A stretch of 64,000 nt of DNA from Candidatus Vogelbacteria bacterium. GTDB lineage: Bacteria > Patescibacteriota > Minisyncoccia > Phycocordibacterales > XYD1-FULL-46-19. The stretch is taken from assembly GCA_903864935.1 (NCBI GenBank), contig CAIPHT010000006.1, positions 37,129 to 101,128 of the forward strand, given 5' to 3'. A program made the position numbers and the translations under genes. The notes beneath the pieces are model-generated. The model saw only the letters and a program-made list of their open reading frames with translations, made no database searches and was not told where the DNA came from. Positions 4,830 through 61,311 of the stretch are shown here, piece after piece (the stretch's first letter is position 1; each line of letters starts with the position of its first letter).

Positions 4830-4931
4830 TTTTCACCTCCTTTCGGGTAGGTTGTTGTGGATCACTTGATCCGATTGTAGAGACCTTTCCTTCCTCAAGC
4901 TAACAGATTGCCTGTTATTGTCAAAAACTAA

Positions 4932-4971
4932 GGTAATAAACCATTCACGACCGTGAATGAATTGCTACCTT
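4932..4971 (+). repeat. 40-bp imperfect palindrome, family A copy 1 (ggtaataaaccattcacgaccgtgaatgaattgctacctt).
   Basis: Outer GGTAA..TTACC arms and inner CATTCACG-a-CCGTGAATG arms. Copies at 5557 and 30551. Confidence 0.6.
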
Positions 4972-4997
4972 GATATAAATTATCTATAATTTAAGAA

Positions 4998-5561
4998 ATG
5001 AAAAAGATTTCTAGAATAAATCACAAAGAAGTTATTTTAAGAACTATTGGCCTAGCTGGTTTACTTGCGGTCTCGGCTGTTGCCCCTGGGGTTTTGGTTC
5101 TTTATAAAAAACACAAGAAAATCCAGTATGAAAAACAGTCCAGAAATTATATAAACAGGGCAACGCAAAATCTAATCAAAGATGGTTTTGTCGAAATAAA
5201 AATTAACGAACAGGGAATAAAGTGCCTCCGTCTAACCAATCGTGGTCAAGAAGCCCTAAAGGAATACGCTTTGGCTGGGCTAGAAATCAAAAAACCTTGG
5301 CGTTGGGATCACAAATACCGGGTAATTATCTTCGATATTAAGGAATTTAAACGAGGAACGAGAGACAAACTAAGGCACTGGCTAGAACATCTTGGCTTTG
5401 TTCGCCTACAAAACAGTGTCTGGGTTTATCCCTATGATTGTCGAGAGGTCGTGATCTTACTTAAAGCTAATTTTAAAATAGGGAAAGAAGTCCTATATAT
5501 GACAGTTGATTCTATAGAAAACGATAAGTGGCTCAAGAAAGAATTTGGTCTGGCTAGGTAA
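4998..5561 (+). CDS. Short PaaX-like protein: N-terminal hydrophobic segment, a wHTH, and a Cas2/PaaX-middle-domain-like beta-alpha-beta core.
   Basis: 187 aa. The segment WRWDHKYRVIIFDIKEFKRGTRDKLRHWLEHLGFVRLQNSVWVYP matches the PaaX pattern W.GKW...L...GF.......P and the Cas2-like strand-helix-strand layout. TATAAT lies 7 nt upstream of the ATG with no SD. The gene is flanked by 40-bp palindromes at 4932-4971 and 5557-5596. Confidence 0.5.
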   Translation: MKKISRINHKEVILRTIGLAGLLAVSAVAPGVLVLYKKHKKIQYEKQSRNYINRATQNLIKDGFVEIKINEQGIKCLRLTNRGQEALKEYALAGLEIKKPWRWDHKYRVIIFDIKEFKRGTRDKLRHWLEHLGFVRLQNSVWVYPYDCREVVILLKANFKIGKEVLYMTVDSIENDKWLKKEFGLAR

Positions 5562-5596
5562 CAAACCGTTCACGGTCGTGAATGGTTTACTACCTT
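5557..5596 (+). repeat. 40-bp imperfect palindrome, family A copy 2. Overlaps the stop codon of the PaaX-like gene.
   Basis: ggtaacaaaccgttcacggtcgtgaatggtttactacctt. Confidence 0.6.
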
Positions 5597-5648
5597 TCTT
5601 TTTATTAAGAATTGTGATAATTTGCCAACAGAAAGGAGGTGATTAACA

Positions 5649-13677: not shown

Positions 13678-13729
13678 AGCGAGGTGTTCTCGCGCAAAAG
13701 AAAAGGGCTCAAAAAGGGAGGAAAAACCC
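13678..13729 (+). promoter_or_regulatory. Conserved leader of small-protein cassette 1: hairpin aGCGAGgtgttCTCGCg, an A-rich tract, then the SD aagggagg.
   Basis: Near-identical to 14060-14112. Confidence 0.45.
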
Positions 13730-13966
13730 ATGAGCAACGATGATAACTTTACCCCGCCGTTCATCCCGTTCGGGGAAACAAATTCGGCTGACCCAAAAGG
13801 GGAGACCGATATCCTCAGACCCGGCAGTGTATTTGGCCCTCCGGGGTCAACAATCGGCCAGCTTCAAGCTGACAGGTTCCAGCGGATTCTCGGTGGAGAT
13901 CTTTCCCGAGAAGAATTAAAGGGAACGGACATCGAGAGATTCCGGAGGGCGAAGCATGGATTGTGA
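13730..13966 (+). CDS. Small hypothetical protein (cassette 1, 78 aa).
   Basis: SD aagggagg 9 nt upstream. Leader and terminator are shared with cassette 2. GC-rich island. Confidence 0.35.
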   Translation: MSNDDNFTPPFIPFGETNSADPKGETDILRPGSVFGPPGSTIGQLQADRFQRILGGDLSREELKGTDIERFRRAKHGL

Positions 13967-13983
13967 TGCTTTGTCTTTCCCGG

Positions 13984-14023
13984 CCCCCGACACGCACCAG
14001 CGTTGTCGGGGGCAGTTTTGTTT
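13984..14023 (+). terminator. Rho-independent terminator of cassette 1.
   Basis: CCCCCGACA-cgcaccagcg-TTGTCGGGGG followed by cagTTTTGTTTG. Confidence 0.6.
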
Positions 14024-14059
14024 GACTATTTTCATTACTAAGCGTTTAATCAATTTAGA

Positions 14060-14112
14060 AGCGAGGTGTTCTCGCGAAACAAAAAAGCTCAAACAAGGGA
14101 GGAAAACAACCC
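14060..14112 (+). promoter_or_regulatory. Conserved leader of small-protein cassette 2.
   Basis: Same hairpin AGCGAGGTGTTCTCGCG, A-rich tract and SD as 13678-13729. Confidence 0.45.
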
Positions 14113-14484
14113 ATGAGCAATAGTATGAAAGTAGTTACGTTCGGAAGGAGTATCCTTTCCGGCGTCATCTTTTGCGAGATAGGAGGAACAGTTGCTTTCG
14201 CCAAAAAAGCGGGCCCCCAACCTAAGGAGGGAGAAACCTGGGAGGTAATACCTCACCGGAACGGGGATGACGGAACTTACTTCCTCCTTGAACTCCTTAA
14301 GAAAATTGAGGAGGGCCCTAAGTCCCCCTCTGTCGAAGAGATCCTTGGGACCATCAACTTCGACGGCAATGGCCCCGGTCCCGAAGGGCCACCTGAACTG
14401 CCGGAGGACTTCGACGCCGGTGGCGTTATCGAACCGAGTGACCGCCCCTGGGATGGTGGAGTTCACCGACGCTTACCAATCTGA
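14113..14484 (+). CDS. Small hypothetical protein (cassette 2, 123 aa), with a hydrophobic N-terminus and a Gly/Pro/acidic-rich C-terminus.
   Basis: SD aagggagg upstream. Preferred over the overlapping minus-strand ORF 14089-14466 because of the SD and the paralogous cassette structure. Confidence 0.35.
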   Translation: MSNSMKVVTFGRSILSGVIFCEIGGTVAFAKKAGPQPKEGETWEVIPHRNGDDGTYFLLELLKKIEEGPKSPSVEEILGTINFDGNGPGPEGPPELPEDFDAGGVIEPSDRPWDGGVHRRLPI

Positions 14485-14502
14485 ACCCGGTTTCTTTCGT
14501 TG

Positions 14503-14541
14503 CCCCCGACACGCATCAGCGTTGTCGGGGGCAGTTTTGTT
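14503..14541 (+). terminator. Rho-independent terminator of cassette 2.
   Basis: CCCCCGACA-cgcatcagcg-TTGTCGGGGG followed by cagTTTTGTTT. Paralogous to 13984-14023. Confidence 0.6.
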
Positions 14542-14650
14542 TATTCAAAAAACCCTTATTTGTCGAAGTCCAACTTCGTAAACTATACAAAACTGTTAAT
14601 AAGTGACAAATATTTTTATTTTTGGCTATTTTTTGTTACTATATTAGACA

Positions 14651-24901: not shown

Positions 24902-25315
24902 ATGGCAACTACTACCACAACCAAAGAAAGATATGTCGAGGCAATCGGCCGTCGCAAGACGGCAACCGCCAGAGTCCGTCTCACCAAGGCGAGCAAGGAC
25001 AGCGTCGTTGTTAACAACAAGACCTTAGACGCCTACTTCCCAACCATTGAGATGCGTGAGCGTGTTAAGAAGGCTCTGGCTAAGATTGGCGAACACGGTG
25101 CCTTTGCTATCTCCGCTCAGATTACTGGTGGGGGAGTAAGCGCCCATACCGATGCCATGATTATGGGTCTTGGACGTGCCATCATCAAGATCAAGCCTGA
25201 GATCAAACCTGAGATCAAGAAAGAAAAGATGTTAACCCGTGATGCCCGCGAGAAAGAACGCCGCAAGTTCGGCCTCAAGAAGGCTCGCAAGAGTCCTCAG
25301 TGGAGCAAGCGTTAG
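24902..25315 (+). CDS. rpsI: 30S ribosomal protein S9, with a Lys/Glu-rich insertion before the conserved C-terminal tail.
   Basis: GRRKTATARVRL, the conserved core, and a C-terminal ...ARKSPQWSKR. Confidence 0.85.
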   Translation: MATTTTTKERYVEAIGRRKTATARVRLTKASKDSVVVNNKTLDAYFPTIEMRERVKKALAKIGEHGAFAISAQITGGGVSAHTDAMIMGLGRAIIKIKPEIKPEIKKEKMLTRDAREKERRKFGLKKARKSPQWSKR

Positions 25316-25329
25316 TCTCAAATCCTACC

Positions 25330-25360
25330 AATCAGCCCAGTTGACAAACTGGGCTGATTT
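25330..25360 (+). terminator. Hairpin terminator after the rplM-rpsI operon.
   Basis: ATCAGCCCAGTT-gaca-AACTGGGCTGAT followed by a weak T tract. Confidence 0.45.
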
Positions 25361-25416
25361 AGTGTTCAATAGAAAAAGAAAATACACTCGTGCCAAAGGC
25401 ACAGGAAAGGAAGAAT

Positions 25417-25557
25417 ATGAGCTGCATAGATCAAGTCGGTATTGTTGTCTTTGCTGCGGGAGTGGCCTTGGTTGTCTTTTCCATGTATAGACTCATGGCA
25501 GAGGCCCTGAGTTCAACCGAAAAAGACAAGGAGCCCTTTGGGATTGAATGGTTTTGA
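25417..25557 (+). CDS. Possible 46-aa single-TM small protein. Not in the ORF track because it is under 60 aa.
   Basis: SD ggaaaggaag 6 nt upstream. Hydrophobic core IVVFAAGVALVVF. Strong terminator immediately downstream at 25574-25615. Confidence 0.25.
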   Translation: MSCIDQVGIVVFAAGVALVVFSMYRLMAEALSSTEKDKEPFGIEWF

Positions 25558-25573
25558 CCTACCGATAACTACA

Positions 25574-25615
25574 CCCGGCGCGCCCCAAGCGCGCCGGGTG
25601 GTTTCTTTTTATTTT
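25574..25615 (+). terminator. Rho-independent terminator.
   Basis: CCCGGCGCGCC-ccaa-GCGCGCCGGG followed by tggTTTCTTTTTATTTTT. Confidence 0.65.
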
Positions 25616-25619
25616 TCTT

Positions 25620-25890
25620 AATTTATGCCATAGTAAAACTACACAGCTTAAGGGCTCACTTGCCACAAGTTCTAGGACAGAAACTTAATCTTGTGCAAAG
25701 GAGGAGAAGACGGAGGGAAGACCTCTGAGATGAAAAAGGTCTTACATTGGGCAAGACGGTAGGTATGACAGATGGGAAGACTGCGGTTGTTCCCCGCACC
25801 CCTGTCACTGGCAAGCTGAATGGGCCGAGCTGGATAGGGGTGTCACAATAGTGGCATCCCGCCTTTTTATTTAAACTTATCCCCATTTTT
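25620..25890 (+). ncRNA. Candidate structured non-coding region. The strand is unknown and no family is assigned.
   Basis: About 270 nt lies between a strong terminator and the REP element, with no credible ORF. Several local hairpins, for example AAGACCT-ctgagatgaaaa-AGGTCTT. I see no convincing match to RNase P, SRP, tmRNA or 6S RNA conserved motifs. Confidence 0.2.
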
Positions 25891-25896
25891 GTATAC

Positions 25897-25919
25897 TATG
25901 CGAGATTGGATATCGCACA
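25897..25919 (+). repeat. REP hairpin (tatgcgaGATTGGATAtcgcaca).
   Basis: 7-bp stem and 9-nt loop. Identical core at 26640, 30888 and 49459, and an inverted copy at 26105. Confidence 0.7.
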
Positions 25920-25949
25920 ATAAGGGTTTTTATGATAATATAATGACCA

Positions 25950-26624
25950 ATGAGGGAGAAGCCCACGGAAGACTACATTTATCACATTTTTAATCGCGGA
26001 GTAGACAAGCGAGAAATTTTTTCTGATGACAGTGATCGTCAACGTTTTTTGGCCTGTCTTTATCATTTTAATGACACAGCTCAAGTGAGAAATATCGATC
26101 GCGTGTGCGATATCCAATCTCGCACAAATGACGACCGGGATAAATTAGTGGAGATACTAGCCTTTACCCTGATGCCTAACCACTTCCATCTCTTAGTAAA
26201 ACCTCTGATTGAAGACGGTGTTTCTGAATTTATGAAAAAAATTGGTATTGGCTACACTCATTACTTTAATATAAAAAACGAACGATCAGGAAGTCTCTTT
26301 CAAGGTAAATATAAATTTGTAAGGATAGAAGACGATGAGCAGCTAAACTATATACCTTATTACATCCACTTTAATCCAGCCGAACTCGTTGATTCGGGAT
26401 GGAAAGAAAAAAAAGTTCAGGATAGTCAAAAGGTTTTTGATTTTTTAAAATCTTATAGATGGTCAAGTCTTCGAGATTATCTCGGCCAAGACAATTTCTC
26501 TCAAATTATAGACAAAGGGGTCCTGACAGACTACCTAGGGAGCCCCGAAGAATTTGAGAAGGAAATCTCTGCTTGGCTCAAAGAAATGGGCTCAATAGAC
26601 CATACAAATCTGTGGATAGAGTAG
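25950..26624 (+). CDS. IS200/IS605-family Y1 (HUH) transposase of the RAYT type.
   Basis: YHIFNRGVDKREIF, HUH motif NHFHLLV, then GYTHYFN....SGSLFQGKY with the catalytic Tyr. 224 aa, which is typical RAYT length. Confidence 0.8.
   Translation: MREKPTEDYIYHIFNRGVDKREIFSDDSDRQRFLACLYHFNDTAQVRNIDRVCDIQSRTNDDRDKLVEILAFTLMPNHFHLLVKPLIEDGVSEFMKKIGIGYTHYFNIKNERSGSLFQGKYKFVRIEDDEQLNYIPYYIHFNPAELVDSGWKEKKVQDSQKVFDFLKSYRWSSLRDYLGQDNFSQIIDKGVLTDYLGSPEEFEKEISAWLKEMGSIDHTNLWIE
26105..26127 (+). repeat. REP hairpin copy in inverse orientation, embedded inside the RAYT coding sequence.
   Basis: tgtgcgaTATCCAATCtcgcaca, encoding DRVCDIQSRTND. Confidence 0.6.
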
Positions 26625-26639
26625 CCAAAATATCCTTAT

Positions 26640-26662
26640 TGTGCGAGATTGGATATCGCACA
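26640..26662 (+). repeat. REP hairpin (tgtgcgaGATTGGATAtcgcaca).
   Basis: Perfect 7-bp stem; see 25897. Confidence 0.7.
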
Positions 26663-29421: not shown

Positions 29422-29456
29422 GAAGTTGGCACTTCGCGTAGCCAAGTCCAACTTCG
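29422..29456 (+). repeat. Short-form GAAGTTGGACTTC-family palindromic element immediately after the dnaK stop.
   Basis: gaagttggCacttc-gcgtagcc-aagtccaacttcg. The arms are inverted relative to the pyrD copies. Confidence 0.5.
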
Positions 29457-30359: not shown

Positions 30360-30550
30360 CCGCGGGGAATGCTCAGGGCCGATTTCTACGCAGGGTAGAC
30401 CTAAGTCACCTTCGCCTGCAACAGAGCAAGCTACGGCGAACCAAGGAGGGGGTTGCCCTAATCAGCTGATTTCAAGAGTGCCTTACTGAATTTCAGACAC
30501 TCACTTTCTGCTTCTAATTATACTCTCATTTTACTGCCCTGTCAAGCCAT

Positions 30551-30590
30551 GGTAATCATCCATTCACGACCGTGAACGATTTGTTACCTT
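30551..30590 (+). repeat. 40-bp imperfect palindrome, third copy of family A (ggtaatcatccattcacgaccgtgaacgatttgttacctt).
   Basis: Same architecture as 4932-4971 and 5557-5596. Confidence 0.6.
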
Positions 30591-30616
30591 GTTCGAAACC
30601 TTTCCCCCAACAAAAG

Positions 30617-30677: not shown

Positions 30678-30794
30678 TCAACAAAAGGCCTTAACCAGAA
30701 AGTACAGCACCATCCCTCCGACGACGAGCACCATCAACCACTGTGGCGGACCAATCGGAACAGGGTCGTCATCCCAATATCTTTTCTCACTCAT
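30678..30794 (-). CDS. Possible 38-aa single-TM micro-protein.
   Basis: SD aggaga 6 nt upstream. Hydrophobic core LMVLVVGGMVLYFLV. The terminator hairpin E1 at 30617-30649 lies downstream on the minus strand. Confidence 0.25.
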   Translation of the reverse strand: MSEKRYWDDDPVPIGPPQWLMVLVVGGMVLYFLVKAFC

Positions 30795-30887
30795 GGCGAA
30801 TCTCCTCTAAGTTGCCATCGTTCTGCTTTCTATTATACACCTTTCTATTCTCTCTGTCAAGCCCAACTCTTGTCTAAAAAACCTTAG

Positions 30888-30910
30888 TGTGCGAGATTGG
30901 ATATCGCACA
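30888..30910 (+). repeat. REP hairpin copy (gtgtgcgaGATTGGATAtcgcacac, 9-bp stem).
   Basis: Identical to the RAYT-flanking REPs. Confidence 0.7.
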
Positions 30911-32762: not shown

Positions 32763-32807
32763 CGACCTATTTCCCATACTTATAATTATAACCTTATGTA
32801 CAAAATC

Positions 32808-32834
32808 AGACGGCCGTCCAAAAGTGTACATAAG
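32808..32834 (+). repeat. 27-bp direct repeat, left copy (agacggccgtccaaaagtgtacataag). Contains the perfect palindrome GACGGCCGTC.
   Basis: 26 of 27 identical to 33403-33429, in the same orientation. Confidence 0.65.
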
Positions 32835-32850
32835 GTTCTTTATAAAATAT

Positions 32851-33372
32851 TTAGATAATATCTGTTTCTTTAACTTCAAAAAATTTCAGAAAAGGCGTAA
32901 TCTTCGCTACTTTCAAAAACTCAATAAATTCTGGGGGTAACGGGGCGGGGCCAAGCCAGACACTCTGTTGCATTTTTTTGAAACCGAGGGTTACCAATTC
33001 TATCCTCAACCAGTTTCTGTCTTTACGTCTCGCTTCGGGAATGTCAAAAGCTATAATAATCTTGCGGTCTGATTTTTTCTGTTTATTTTCTACTCTGGCA
33101 TATTTTTTAGAAAACTTACTTTTACCAAATTTATTCTTACCGAAAACTGTGATTTTCCAAAGACCATCTTTATTTTCAACCAAACCCTGCTTTTTCAGGC
33201 GAGACAGGGCAACCCTAAGAGAATTATCAAAAACTTTATCCTCCTTTATTTTAGAACCCTCCCCCAGATCATCAAAGCCAGGACCAACACGCCGAAGCAT
33301 CCGTTCTCTCAAACGGCTATAATTTCCGGGACTATTCGATAAGAAAAATAACAATTCTTCACCAATACTCAT
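32851..33372 (-). CDS. Short PaaX-like protein 2 (wHTH plus Cas2-like core), a paralogue of 4998-5561.
   Basis: RKIIIAFDIPEARRKDRNWLRIELVTLGFKKMQQSVWLGPAP gives the same pattern as the first copy. The N-terminal wHTH is LRVALSRLKKQGLVENKDGLWKIT. The start is moved to the ATG at 33372, because the ORF-track start at 33426 lies inside the flanking direct repeat. Confidence 0.45.
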   Translation of the reverse strand: MSIGEELLFFLSNSPGNYSRLRERMLRRVGPGFDDLGEGSKIKEDKVFDNSLRVALSRLKKQGLVENKDGLWKITVFGKNKFGKSKFSKKYARVENKQKKSDRKIIIAFDIPEARRKDRNWLRIELVTLGFKKMQQSVWLGPAPLPPEFIEFLKVAKITPFLKFFEVKETDII

Positions 33373-33402
33373 TTTTTTATTTATCACCATATTATCATAT
33401 TT

Positions 33403-33429
33403 GGACGGCCGTCCAAAAGTGTACATAAG
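33403..33429 (+). repeat. 27-bp direct repeat, right copy (ggacggccgtccaaaagtgtacataag).
   Basis: See 32808-32834. Confidence 0.65.
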
Positions 33430-33795: not shown

Positions 33796-35130
33796 ATGGA
33801 AAGCTGGATCAAAACTAGGAACAAAATTATTGGTTGGAATTATCGAAATATTCTCAAACCAATTCTCTTCAAATTCGATCCTGAAGATATCCACGACTTA
33901 TTTATTAAAGTAGGGAATCTCCTTGGCCAAACATCCGCCACTCGATATTTAACAAGAGTTCTTTTTGATTATGAGAACCCAGTGCTTGAACAAGAAATTT
34001 TGGGCATCAAATTTAAAAATCCAGTTGGCCTCTCGGCTGGCTTCGACAAGAATGCAAGACTAACAAAAATCTTACCAGCTGTTGGCTTTGGTTTTGCTGA
34101 AGCGGGTTCAGTCACTGGCCGACCCTGCAAGGGCAATGAGGGGCGACATTTATGGCGCTTGCCTAAGTCTAAGAGTTTGATTGTTTATTATGGTTTGACG
34201 AATGATGGGGCAGAGGCCATCGCCAGGCGATTGTTAGAAGTCCAACTTCAAGTGAGCCCGAAGTTGGACTTCGAACAAGAAGCCAAGGGTCCGGAAGTTG
34301 GACTTCGGGCTCACTTGAAGTCCAACTTCCTACACAAGTCCAACTTCGTTCTGGGCATCAGTCTCGCCAAAACAAACGACCAAAAAACCATCACGACCGA
34401 AGCGGGGACTGCTGATTATATTAAAGCCTATGAAGCCTTCCTCAAGACCGACGTTGGCGACTACTTCACCATCAACATCAGTTGCCCCAACACCTTTGGT
34501 GGCGAACCTTTTGTTGAACCAGAACGTCTTGATTTGTTACTCTCCGCTTTTGCTAAAATAAGAGACGAAGAATCTGCCCGAGGACTACCCTCGGTCAAAG
34601 CGAAAGAAGTCCAACTTCAAGTGAGCCCGAAGTTGGACTTCGTGAGCGTCAACCGTCCACTTTTTATAAAACTCCCACCAGACCTAAGTGAAGAAAAACT
34701 AGACGCCATTATTGAACTGGTCAAGAAATATAAAATCAATGGCTTCGTCTCGACAAATCTCACCAAGGACCGAAACAATCCACTAATTAAAGATAAAATA
34801 AAGGATCCTTTGCCCACAGACAAAGGGGGATTGTCAGGTAAGATTGTTGAGGAGCTCGCAACCAAGCAAATTGAATATATTTATAAAAAAATAAAAGATC
34901 TCCCTCAGACCGAGAGACCTATCATCATTGGTTGCGGAGGCATCTTCACAGCCCAAGACGCCTACAACAAAATCAAAGCTGGCGCCTCACTCCTCCAACT
35001 CATCACCGGGATGATTTTCGAAGGCCCTCAAGTCATTAGCGAGATCAATCAAGGCCTGGTCACCCTGCTCCAAAAAGATGGGTATAAAAATATAAGTGAG
35101 GCGGTAGGGAAGTCTACTTGCCAACCATAA
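33796..35130 (+). CDS. pyrD: Dihydroorotate dehydrogenase (class 2-like), carrying three in-frame palindromic-element insertions that add about 100 aa.
   Basis: GFDKNA, NISCPNT, GGLSG, IIGCGGI...DA..KI.AGASLLQL.TG. It is 444 aa, against about 340-360 for typical DHODH. The extra peptides EVQLQVSPKLDF (twice) and PEVGLRAHLKSNF are encoded by the repeats at 34237-34273, 34292-34330 and 34606-34642. Confidence 0.8.
   Translation: MESWIKTRNKIIGWNYRNILKPILFKFDPEDIHDLFIKVGNLLGQTSATRYLTRVLFDYENPVLEQEILGIKFKNPVGLSAGFDKNARLTKILPAVGFGFAEAGSVTGRPCKGNEGRHLWRLPKSKSLIVYYGLTNDGAEAIARRLLEVQLQVSPKLDFEQEAKGPEVGLRAHLKSNFLHKSNFVLGISLAKTNDQKTITTEAGTADYIKAYEAFLKTDVGDYFTINISCPNTFGGEPFVEPERLDLLLSAFAKIRDEESARGLPSVKAKEVQLQVSPKLDFVSVNRPLFIKLPPDLSEEKLDAIIELVKKYKINGFVSTNLTKDRNNPLIKDKIKDPLPTDKGGLSGKIVEELATKQIEYIYKKIKDLPQTERPIIIGCGGIFTAQDAYNKIKAGASLLQLITGMIFEGPQVISEINQGLVTLLQKDGYKNISEAVGKSTCQP
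34237..34273 (+). repeat. 37-bp palindromic element, short form (GAAGTCCAACTTC-aagtgagcccg-AAGTTGGACTTC-g), in frame in pyrD.
   Basis: Perfect 13-bp inverted arms. Translated as EVQLQVSPKLDF. Confidence 0.75.
34292..34348 (+). repeat. Inverse-orientation copy of the 37-bp element plus an adjacent half-element, in frame in pyrD.
   Basis: cggaagttggacttcgggctcacttgaagtccaacttcc, then aagtccaacttcg. Translated as PEVGLRAHLKSNF..HKSNF. Confidence 0.7.
34606..34642 (+). repeat. 37-bp palindromic element, second direct copy, in frame in pyrD.
   Basis: Identical to 34237-34273. Confidence 0.75.
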
Positions 35131-49209: not shown

Positions 49210-49458
49210 AAACATAACAAAAGCCGAGAGTTTCCTCTCAGCTTTCCGAGGCGTCACTCTCGGGTTATGACACTAAATTCGATAACGATGACGTCGCATG
49301 ACGTACTCCTTCCGCGGCTAGGCCGCTAGTGATGGCCGACCCCTGACGTAGGCAAGCGGGGTAACCCTGGCGTGGACCGCTAAAACAACCAAAAGATCAA
49401 TAATTATAGTGTAGCATACCATTAATCTTTTGTCAAGCCCATCCCAAGAAAGCCTTAT

Positions 49459-49481
49459 TTTTCGATATCCAATCTCGAAAC
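49459..49481 (+). repeat. Degenerate REP hairpin (tttcgaTATCCAATCtcgaaa). Same loop as the RAYT REPs but a variant stem.
   Basis: Loop identical to the REP family. Confidence 0.45.
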
Positions 49482-60773: not shown

Positions 60774-61311
60774 ACCCAACCCGCCCGTCTGTTAAGCCAC
60801 CGGCAAGCCCGTCGTCTTGATGAGACGGGCTTTGCTATTACTTTAAATTATAAATAAGCGATTTTTAAGGCGAAAAGTGAAAAAAATCGAAAAATGACCA
60901 AATTTGGCTTTTTGAGGATCTTTAAGAAAATAGCGATATTAACACTTTTTGACGGCCGTCAGGAAATGTTAATAAGGGTTCGGGGTCAGAAATTTAGCGA
61001 TAAGTTGACAGAGAAGTGAAGAAAATATTTTTGGAAAATAATTTTTAGACGGCAGGGTAGGGGGTTTTAATATCGCAAAATGCATTGTCCGACGTCAAGG
61101 CACACATCGGACAATGCCCTTCGATTTTGCAACATTAAGCCTACGGCTTATGTCGCAAAATCTATGTTGTGCGACATATACCATAGTTATCCACAGCTAG
61201 CTAAAAGCCCTCCCCCTTTACAAGATTGACAATTTGTTTCACATTTGATAATCTATCTTTCAGACAAAGTGGTGAGCAACTAGTGCTTACCCAAACAAAA
61301 AGGAGAAGTCC

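Follow-up and report, generated by a model that had tools for sequence, protein, structure and literature searches.

A 64,000-nt stretch of the genome of an ultra-small bacterium of the Paceibacterota, a Candidatus Vogelbacteria bacterium (contig CAIPHT010000006.1; hereafter the window, meaning this whole stretch) carries, between rpsI and grpE, a gene for a tyrosine-transposase-like protein of the Y1/HUH kind, which is bracketed by inverted modules of ca. 60 nt, each with a 23-nt hairpin at its core. Our comparisons of this locus with related sequences indicate that this gene of the IS200 superfamily of insertion sequences (IS) and its modules probably form a system of the REPtron/TIRtron type, i.e., a transposase associated with repetitive extragenic palindromes (REP-associated tyrosine transposase, RAYT) or with terminal inverted repeats (TIR-associated, TIRYT), and that the modules would be small non-autonomous mobile elements. 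An initial annotation of this DNA had read the locus as a REPtron, a reading supported by the single-copy, syntenic gene, by the hairpins on both of its sides and by the dispersed copies of the hairpin. By itself the locus is an ordinary REPtron; the noteworthy part is the family-wide pattern, in which cognate hairpins flank about half, and sit inside about a third, of the genes of this protein family in Patescibacteria.

The transposase gene and its hairpin modules

The features of the locus, and the dispersed copies of its hairpin, are the following (comparison loci are denoted by L numbers):

25876-25896, plus strand: outer flank motif X of the upstream module, CTTATCCCCATTTTTGTATAC
25897-25919, plus strand: upstream hairpin, TATGCGAGATTGGATATCGCACA, differing from the consensus at one position; distance to the ATG 30 nt
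25920-25932, plus strand: inner flank motif Y, AATAAGGGTTTTT, kept beside most copies in the window and in L006-L017
25950-26624, plus strand: Y1/HUH tyrosine-transposase-like gene (RAYT/TIRYT class), 224 aa
26104-26126, minus strand: intragenic hairpin, exact, in frame, codons 52-59, peptide VCDIQSRT
26181-26189, plus strand: HUH motif H78-F79-H80 within PNHFHLL
26361-26378, plus strand: catalytic-Tyr motif YIHFNP
26600-26621, minus strand: possible inverted motif X (CTCTATCCACAGATTTGTATGG on the minus strand), overlapping the last codons HTNLWIE
26627-26639, minus strand: motif Y, inverted (AAAATATCCTTAT on the plus strand)
26640-26662, plus strand: downstream hairpin, identical to the consensus; distance to the stop codon 15 nt, to grpE 84 nt
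30876-30910, plus strand: solo-copy unit, Y-like flank AAAAAACCTTAG plus exact hairpin
30888-30910, plus strand: solo dispersed hairpin of that unit, exact, intergenic, upstream of dnaJ (family D5)
49449-49481, minus strand: degenerate dispersed copy, hairpin at 49459-49481, Y flank AAAGCCTTATT (family I16)

A search with the consensus of the hairpin, TGTGCGAGATTGGATATCGCACA, at three or fewer mismatches rendered four matches in the window, versus 0.00 expected from 100 shuffles. A 10-bp stem that has one mismatch and is closed by a TGG/CCA triloop describes the structure better. The two flanking hairpins had initially been described as identical and placed 31 bp before and 16 bp after the gene; both are present, but the upstream one has a mismatch (TATGCGA...), which is the same in five independent metagenome contigs, and the spacings are 30 and 15 nt. 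The recurrence of the hairpin at 30888-30910 and, in degenerate form, at 49459-49481 had been correctly noted. The degenerate copy, in inverse orientation, has the plus-strand sequence TTTCGA TATCCAATC TCGAAA; its stem has changed in such a way that pairing is preserved, and this stem variant recurs inside uvrC of another species (L017). Folding of the hairpin as single-stranded DNA (ssDNA) gave -4.9 to -10.2 kcal/mol, with z-scores of -3 to -6.5 for the intergenic copies (upstream copy, -4.9 kcal/mol, z -3.0; downstream copy, -7.6 kcal/mol, z -3.9; solo copy, -10.2 kcal/mol, z -6.5).

The hairpin forms the central part of a larger module with the layout X (CTTATCCCCAnTTTTGTATAC) - hairpin - Y (AATAAGGGTTTTT), and it is the X and Y flanks that put the upstream and downstream copies of the window gene in inverted orientation; the orientation of the loop alone is uninformative on the direction of a copy, because it flips freely between species. 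Motif X also adjoins hairpins in L010 (twice), L012, L015, L016, L019 and L022, and is found inside UvrC in L106. At 25876-25896 it includes the DnaA-box-like TTATCCCCA, the opposite strand having GGGGATAA. The stretch at 26600-26621 matches motif X at 16 of 21 positions with one gap, and L019, L020 and L022 have this pairing too, so that an inverted X at this place is possible from the alignment, on weaker evidence, since protein-level constraint could equally conserve these codons.

DnaA-box-like sequences are present in the window at 25878-25886 (TTATCCCCA) and at 26611-26619 (TGTGGATAG, the last codons NLWIE and the stop). A perfect DnaA box, TTATCCACA, lies beside or within hairpins of other loci of the family, and DnaA-box-like sequences occur in the flanks of L015, L017, L043 and L074.

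Cognate hairpins across the protein family

All the orthologues (L012, L013, L019, L020, L022 and L024) have a hairpin on both sides of the gene, and three sequence types can be distinguished. Type 1, TGTGCGA[G/T]AT-TGG/CCA-AT[A/C]TCGCACA, is found in the window, L012, L013 and L022, and type 2, CGAAGT-TGG/CCA-ACTTCG, in L019 and L020, while the hairpin of L024 is TTGTGCGAAAT-CCG-ATTTCGCACAA. In the more distant L025 the hairpin ATCGAAGT-CGG/CCG-ACTTCGAT is found upstream of the gene, at 19 nt from the ATG, downstream of it, at 9 nt from the stop codon, and also within the ORF, in the same loop of the protein (SIEVGLRY).

The survey was extended to 80 more loci of the family (36-61% identity), 78 of which were scored. 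A hairpin was taken as cognate when its 13-nt centre recurred with at most one mismatch, the 150 nt upstream of each gene being compared with its own downstream 150 nt; pairing with other loci (780 pairs) served as the control. The centre of the hairpin recurred on the opposite side of the gene in 41 of the 78 loci (control, 9/780), and a hairpin within the open reading frame (ORF) was cognate with its own flanks in 29 of them (control, 8/780). These internal hairpins lie at codons 49-71 in 23 of the 29 loci, i.e., 20-30 codons before the HUH motif, and a second internal site is found near codons 157-169. The distance between hairpin and gene is 6-35 nt on the side of the start codon and 0-15 nt on that of the stop codon. 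Their sequences are very diverse between loci, so that every protein lineage possesses a hairpin of its own, which is what an enzyme-substrate pair would lead one to expect. Extra cognate copies occur in the flanks of the family loci at 0.56 per 10 kb, versus 0.067 for non-cognate cores. A count of 10-mers shared between flanks and ORF was rejected as a test for internal hairpins, since its non-cognate control gave 50/78 owing to AT-rich words.

L015, from another Paceibacterota genome, encodes on its minus strand (670-1344) a second, divergent member of the family, 51% identical to the window protein. The flanks of this gene carry a hairpin of their own, CGAAGT-TCG-ACTTCG, together with the X and Y motifs seen in the window; a single genome can thus accommodate several enzyme/hairpin pairs.

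Classification of the protein

The 224-aa protein has the Y1/HUH hallmarks that the initial annotation had ascribed to it. It matches Pfam Y1_Tnp with 36.5 bits (cut-off 23), the sole domain match in Pfam at E<=1, and it carries the invariant HUH and Tyr motifs. Its AlphaFold2 (AF2) model, with a predicted local distance difference test (pLDDT) of 82 and a predicted template modelling score (pTM) of 0.83, has as top Foldseek match 4er8_A, the E. coli RAYT-REP complex (E 1.4e-4), followed by the TnpA proteins of IS608 and ISDra2. A fold search was needed, since a sequence search of the PDB with the family profile was nearly empty (ISDra2 TnpA only, E=0.25). Its relatives number more than 3,200; they come from Paceibacterota, Vogelbacteria, Giovannonibacteria and other Patescibacteria, and nearly all are unnamed or labelled 'transposase'. 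Among 28 of them that were aligned, residues H78, H80, Y138, N142, P143 and the C-terminal W171-S172-S173 are invariant.

TnpA(Y1) subclass 2.1 (Quentin 2018, PMC6006769) is the same as group 1 of Bertels and as the TIRYTs (Di Nocera 2013, PMC3733652), and class 2 has the Tyr motif YxxxNP, versus YxxxQ in the IS200 transposases (PMC6006769). On comparison with Table 1 of PMC6006769, the motifs agree with those of subclass 2.1, namely NH[YF]H, FQ instead of WQ, Y[IV]H.NP and an SS tail, and so does a length of ca. 238 aa. When the TIRYT and RAYT reference sequences of Additional file 5 of Di Nocera 2013 (PMC3733652) were scored with the family profile (hmmsearch), the TIRYTs obtained 37-87 bits, nine of the 12 being at 60-87, and the canonical RAYTs, including E. 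coli b228, obtained 12-31 bits (E. coli RAYT, 12.6 bits). Judged by motifs and profiles, the window protein is thus closest to the RAYT-like proteins of the TIRYT/subclass 2.1 group, not to canonical E. coli-type RAYTs, and the initial classification as a RAYT holds in the broad sense: the protein falls below the NCBIfam RAYT cut-off and is nearer to TIRYT/subclass 2.1. Its C-terminal tail has only 81 aa, with the WSS motif, and the long distal helix-turn-helix (HTH)-like C-terminal domain of the TIRYTs (Bac_DnaA_C/HTH_23/HTH_28-like) was not found in this tail by Pfam at E<=1. The idea of a DnaA-like HTH in the protein that reads a TTATCCACA-like flank was left unsupported by the short tail and the lack of such a Pfam match.

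Copy number and genomic context of the gene

The HUH gene is single-copy within the 64-kb window, no tnpB-like ORF is adjacent to it, and the identical protein is always encoded in the order S13-S11-S4-RpoA-L17-L13-S9-X-GrpE-DnaK, where X stands for the HUH protein. The order rpsI-X-grpE-dnaK is also found in L012, L013, L019, L020, L022 and L024 (61-78% protein identity), whereas the L025 relative (48% identity) lies in a different context, between prepilin peptidase and type II secretion genes. The single copy and the fixed chromosomal position indicate that the gene is not a hopping IS; as far as the compared sequences tell, it is vertically inherited and single-copy.

Dispersed copies and mobility of the modules

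A 19-nt core of the hairpin was found at 13 loci across seven species-level metagenome-assembled genomes (MAGs), so that, with the two additional copies in the window, the hairpin also recurs away from the gene. About 30% of the copies at the MAG loci lie inside coding sequences, and the intergenic copies are found in every kind of setting, including between convergent genes (L006). Within coding sequences the core is read as CDIQSR in the RAYT, YPYCAISNL in UvrC, LCEIGYRT in TsaD and VVRYPISQN in a ComF-like protein, i.e., in three reading frames, which points to an element of the DNA and not of the protein level.

The window also contains copies with type 2 hairpins:

14545-14610, plus strand: type 2 module, core CGAAGTCCAACTTCG, flanked by Y and X as above, located upstream of alaS (family I1)
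29422-29456, plus strand: type 2 doublet, directly after the dnaK stop codon
34236-34273 and 34292-34330 (inverse orientation), plus strand: type 2 doublets in frame in a DHO-dehydrogenase (DHO_dh)-like gene (families D15, I6)
34605-34642, plus strand: second recent in-frame type 2 doublet in the same gene, encoding EVQLQVSPKLDF

The DHO_dh-like gene (33796-35130) has two in-frame insertions of 51 nt (17 aa, EVQLQVSPKLDF) with respect to the 85%-identical orthologue of L019. The one with the 34236-34273 doublet is missing from L019, and the doublet at 34605-34642 is absent from L019, L020, L022 and L015. Each of them is a type 2 doublet, GAAGTCCAACTTC-N10-GAAGTTGGACTTC, REPIN-like in its arrangement; the doublet entry at 34236-34330 folds as ssDNA with -15.4 kcal/mol (z -7.2). 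A possible target-site duplication (GTCAA on both sides of a DHO_dh insertion) was set aside, a single event not being interpretable. The UvrC orthologues are hypervariable at the site of the hairpin, which is empty in L107, holds Y plus a type 1 hairpin in L008 and L017, and a full Y - type 2 hairpin - X module in L106, this last being a near-identical, in-frame counterpart of the module at 14545-14610. The peptide encoded by the hairpin in UvrC is PY[CFL][AS][IK]SN[LF]. Such presence or absence of in-frame modules in UvrC and DHO_dh-like genes between related genomes argues for their mobility.

The hairpin type differs between genomes at orthologous sites, namely upstream of alaS, where the L022 site (window 14563 / L022 1280) holds a type 1 hairpin; after dnaK, where L019 (13322-13360) has a doublet with the same spacer CGTAGCC and type 1-like arms; at the old DHO_dh insertion (window 34292-34330 versus L019 and L020); and in the flanks of the RAYT gene. 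The arms switch by paired compensatory swaps (AG<->GA with CT<->TC), the spacers of the doublets are kept and the orientation of the loop flips. This paired switching at orthologous sites requires either concerted evolution or in-situ replacement. The initial annotation had also proposed that the RAYT might mobilise the other hairpin families of the window; of these, the GAAGTCCAACTTC family is the only one demonstrably related, and two families of long palindromes each bracket a PaaX_M/Cas2-like gene of their own.

Two side observations concern the sites of these copies. Paceibacterota UvrC proteins contain further hypervariable insertions with recurring peptides (SSEPEV, ATSSAPEVVFRT, GLSFGQPLKESP and RSRISGSLEK), whose recurrence suggests further families of palindromic elements inserted in frame. 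The other is a minus-strand stretch (30793-30870) that comes, on that strand, immediately downstream of the solo hairpin at 30888-30910: read by eye, it has the sigma-70 consensus promoter TTGACA-N17-TATAAT, then GGAG and an ATG, and points at a small, unlisted minus-strand ORF.

The hairpin inside the gene

An inverse copy encoding VCDIQSRT had been reported by the initial annotation at 26105-27; the copy and its peptide are as described, its coordinates being 26104-26126. In the AF2 model it falls in a surface loop of low confidence (residues 47-60, pLDDT 54-66), between the helix at 27-39 and the strand at 67-74. The conservation of this hairpin, raised as a question by the same annotation, is apparent in L012 and L013 (78% and 76% protein identity) and, in distant members, from the cognate internal hairpins counted above. 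The hairpin itself is nucleotide-perfect in L012 and L013; its codons there are identical to those of the window at 23 of 24 nt, versus 72-73% elsewhere in the gene, and their synonymous third positions are unchanged in 7/7 cases in both loci, versus 46-55% elsewhere (Fisher p=0.005 and 0.02).

That a REP can sit in frame within a tnpA(REP) gene is known already; such cases have been reported as peculiar to subclass 2.4, where they lie between the HUH and Tyr motifs (PMC6006769); intragenic REPs are also listed in Additional file 3 of PMC3733652. As a tentative proposal, which we regard as rather doubtful, the internal hairpin could be a selected cis-element of a 5'/internal/3' triad that extends across a Patescibacteria-wide TIRYT-like family, acting either as an autoregulatory self-recognition site or as a master copy protected by its coding function, and the switching of type and orientation could be an in-situ replacement mediated by the enzyme. 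If so, a homing-like process would in effect convert old hairpins to the current cognate one, and the subclass 2.1/TIRYT proteins would gain a concrete, testable activity.

Proposed mode of action and alternative explanations

At the level of sequence comparison, the association of the hairpins with the gene and the mobility of the modules are established; the role of this protein as the enzyme for which the hairpins are substrates, as well as its chemistry and strand preference, we infer by analogy with E. coli TnpA(REP) and IS608 TnpA. As a domesticated enzyme, the protein would bind the hairpin in ssDNA, e.g., in the lagging-strand template; it would nick beside the foot of the hairpin by means of Tyr138 and a metal site formed by H78 and H80, through a 5'-phosphotyrosyl intermediate; and the rejoining of the strands would copy, move or replace hairpin units. 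The hairpin inside the ORF would have been an in-frame insertion in a permissive surface loop, kept cognate by selection or by the same copying process.

Several observations weigh against a REPtron/TIRtron-type system. The link between enzyme and hairpin is, in the sequences compared, an associative one. The score of the protein with the NCBIfam RAYT equivalog NF047646 is 40.9 bits, under the cut-off of 80. The feet of the hairpins, ..CTTAT|TGTGCGA or ..TATAC|TGTGCGA, have no GTAG or GTGG, unlike the canonical GT[AG]G foot. Exact copies number 5-7 per MAG, many fewer than in the classical REP families. L022 and L024 have a decayed internal hairpin, with part of the peptide kept, and L019 and L020 lack it, so that some lineages conserve this element in their DNA while others can dispense with it. 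Recent type 2 insertions are found in the window genome while its RAYT gene carries type 1 hairpins; it is plausible that the enzyme accepts both types or that there is a second enzyme outside the window, the latter being made plausible by the divergent paralogue with its own hairpin in L015. Finally, copies are found at orthologous positions (upstream of alaS, after dnaK) in species whose RAYT is only 70-78% identical, and these copies could reflect a conserved host function rather than mobility.

An alternative that we consider unlikely leaves the HUH protein out of the origin and spread of the hairpins and ascribes both to host processes, such as gene conversion, template switching at quasi-palindromes or selection for a role as terminators or stabilisers; their association with the gene would then be a consequence, e.g., of an insertion preference. 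The type switching and the loop flipping with paired compensatory changes in the arms are of the kind produced by template switching or gene conversion, the copy number is low, and other palindrome families of the window are not next to an HUH gene. However, the lineage-specific matching of hairpins in 41/78 and 29/78 loci, versus ca. 1% in the controls, would be hard to obtain without a functional link between protein and hairpin, and the same architecture defines the REPtrons, whose E. coli enzyme has been demonstrated to cleave its REP (PMC6006769; PMC3479197, structure 4ER8).

Still less probable, in our opinion, is that the hairpins are cis-regulatory sites of the host (operators, or elements of RNA stability or termination) and that the HUH protein is a domesticated binding regulator of its own gene and of its neighbours, including grpE-dnaK. 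In other bacteria hrcA is often found in the slot upstream of grpE-dnaK that the HUH gene occupies here. The conservation of the rpsI-X-grpE-dnaK(-dnaJ) arrangement from 61 to 100% identity, the tight spacing of the hairpins around the gene, the copies at orthologous intergenic positions across species, and the -10-like sequences that follow many copies, one promoter-like match having its -35 in the hairpin loop, would all fit such a role. Yet modules including the -10-like flank lie in frame in coding sequences (UvrC, TsaD, ComF-like, DHO_dh), and relatives differ in whether they have them, one copy is located between convergent genes (L006), the orientation of the hairpin flips at orthologous sites, and the catalytic His and Tyr residues are invariant, which would be needless for a pure binding protein. 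Promoter-like matches numbered 8 versus 5.0 +/- 2.0 in shuffles, so that the hairpin as an operator or -35 element of an outward promoter was rejected for want of any excess, as well as for its inconsistent orientation to neighbouring genes and the in-frame module in uvrC of L106. A heat-shock regulator in the hrcA slot is weakened as an explanation by L025, which lacks the grpE synteny and keeps the hairpin triad in an unrelated context.

That the locus is an autonomous IS of the IS200/IS605 type, with the flanking hairpins as its left and right subterminal hairpins, is very improbable: although the hairpin-ORF-hairpin cassette is compact, the fold is that of the IS200 superfamily and distant members of the family lie in different genomic contexts, there is one copy in the window, its chromosomal position is shared by seven species-level relatives and by every contig that encodes the identical protein, it has no tnpB partner, hairpins also occur solo, without the gene, and the protein does not group with canonical IS200 TnpA, as the initial annotation had considered it might, having YxxxNP instead of the YxxxQ of IS200 transposases (PMC6006769) and 4er8 as its best structural match.

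Comparison with known systems

The window locus shares with the REPtron of E. coli a single-copy, vertically inherited Y1/HUH gene with the HUH and YxxxNP motifs, inverted palindromic flanks and dispersed copies, and the best structural match of its protein, 4er8_A, comes from that system. The E. coli-type RAYT REPtron is reportedly the subject of Nunvar 2010 and Ton-Hoang 2012. It differs from the system found here in that the family profile gives only 12.6 bits between the two proteins, the window protein being under the equivalog cut-off and having an 81-aa WSS tail; in that the window hairpins are near-perfect palindromes with a 3-nt loop and no GT[AG]G foot; and in its copy number, hundreds versus 5-7 exact copies per genome here.

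The likeness to the TIRYT/TIRtron (subclass 2.1) systems lies in the best profile matches, most of them at 60-87 bits, in the motifs and the length of ca. 238 aa, and in the inverted repeats that flank the gene, one of them overlapping the 3' end of the ORF. Some TIRs are reported to be self-complementary and moderately repeated (PMC3733652). The window protein differs from the TIRYTs in having no long distal HTH-like C-terminal domain. Of the TIR motif GGGGWSAS, only 6-7 of the 8 positions are matched by GGGGATAA (minus strand, 25878-25885) and by GGGGACAA (L106). Subclass 2.1 has been reported to be without REP-like sequences nearby (PMC6006769), whereas cognate hairpins flank about half of the family studied here, and the host phylum, Patescibacteria, was not included in the TIRYT surveys (Di Nocera 2013, Quentin 2018). 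The subclass 2.4 REPtrons (Quentin 2018) likewise have a cognate REP within the transposase ORF, in a peripheral loop and with the frame intact, but theirs is another protein subclass and their internal site lies between HUH and Tyr, in contrast to the sites 20-30 codons before HUH and near codon 160 found here, where no GTAG or 'double foot' REPs are present.

Elements of the IS200/IS605 group (IS608, ISDra2) are alike in fold, in HUH/Tyr chemistry and in having hairpins near both ends of the gene, and differ in that the window gene is neither multi-copy nor a mobile cassette, has YxxxNP and not YxxxQ, lacks a TnpB and coexists with solo hairpins. The Rickettsia palindromic elements (RPE) have ca. 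100-150 nt. They resemble the present ones as small palindromes in frame in housekeeping genes of a reduced genome, to which they add short peptides; the units described here are of 23-66 nt and linked to a dedicated HUH gene.

No description of RAYT/REP systems in Patescibacteria was found in the literature searched. The system is of a known type (REPtron/TIRtron), not previously described in this lineage or in this subclass of proteins. The subclass 2.1 (TIRYT) proteins are without a known substrate, and the Patescibacteria family offers a defined candidate DNA substrate. Palindromes of 23-66 nt lie in frame in essential genes (UvrC, TsaD, DHO-dehydrogenase-like) despite strong reduction of genome size, which bears on the origin of the lineage-specific insertions of proteins of the candidate phyla radiation (CPR) and on the annotation of their genomes.

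Other features of the window

The 580-nt gap between rpsI and the RAYT locus (25316-25896) contains a 55-aa ORF (25390-25557) and GC-rich, structured sequence, with terminator-like hairpins on the plus strand at 25572-25600 and 25837-25860. A search of Rfam, with the whole window at the gathering threshold and with 25300-25960 at E<=1, rendered no relevant match for the hairpins or for this gap.

A tandem duplication of ca. 380-520 bp is present at 13678-14542, with small ORFs, each copy ending in a terminator-like hairpin, GCCCCCGACACGCAnCAGCGTTGTCGGGGGC (families D6, D11). The families of long palindromes mentioned above, D2 (...CCATTCACGACCGTGAATG...) and D1 (...GACGGCCGTC...), each bracket on both sides a gene of their own (regions 4925-5604 and 32775-33429), with third copies at 30544-30598 and 60917-60976. 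The two genes (4998-5561, plus strand, and 32851-33426, minus strand) are paralogues of ca. 190 aa, 29% identical to each other, both with a Pfam PaaX_M (Cas2-like) domain and weak winged-helix matches, and these palindromes are probably not cargo of the HUH enzyme.

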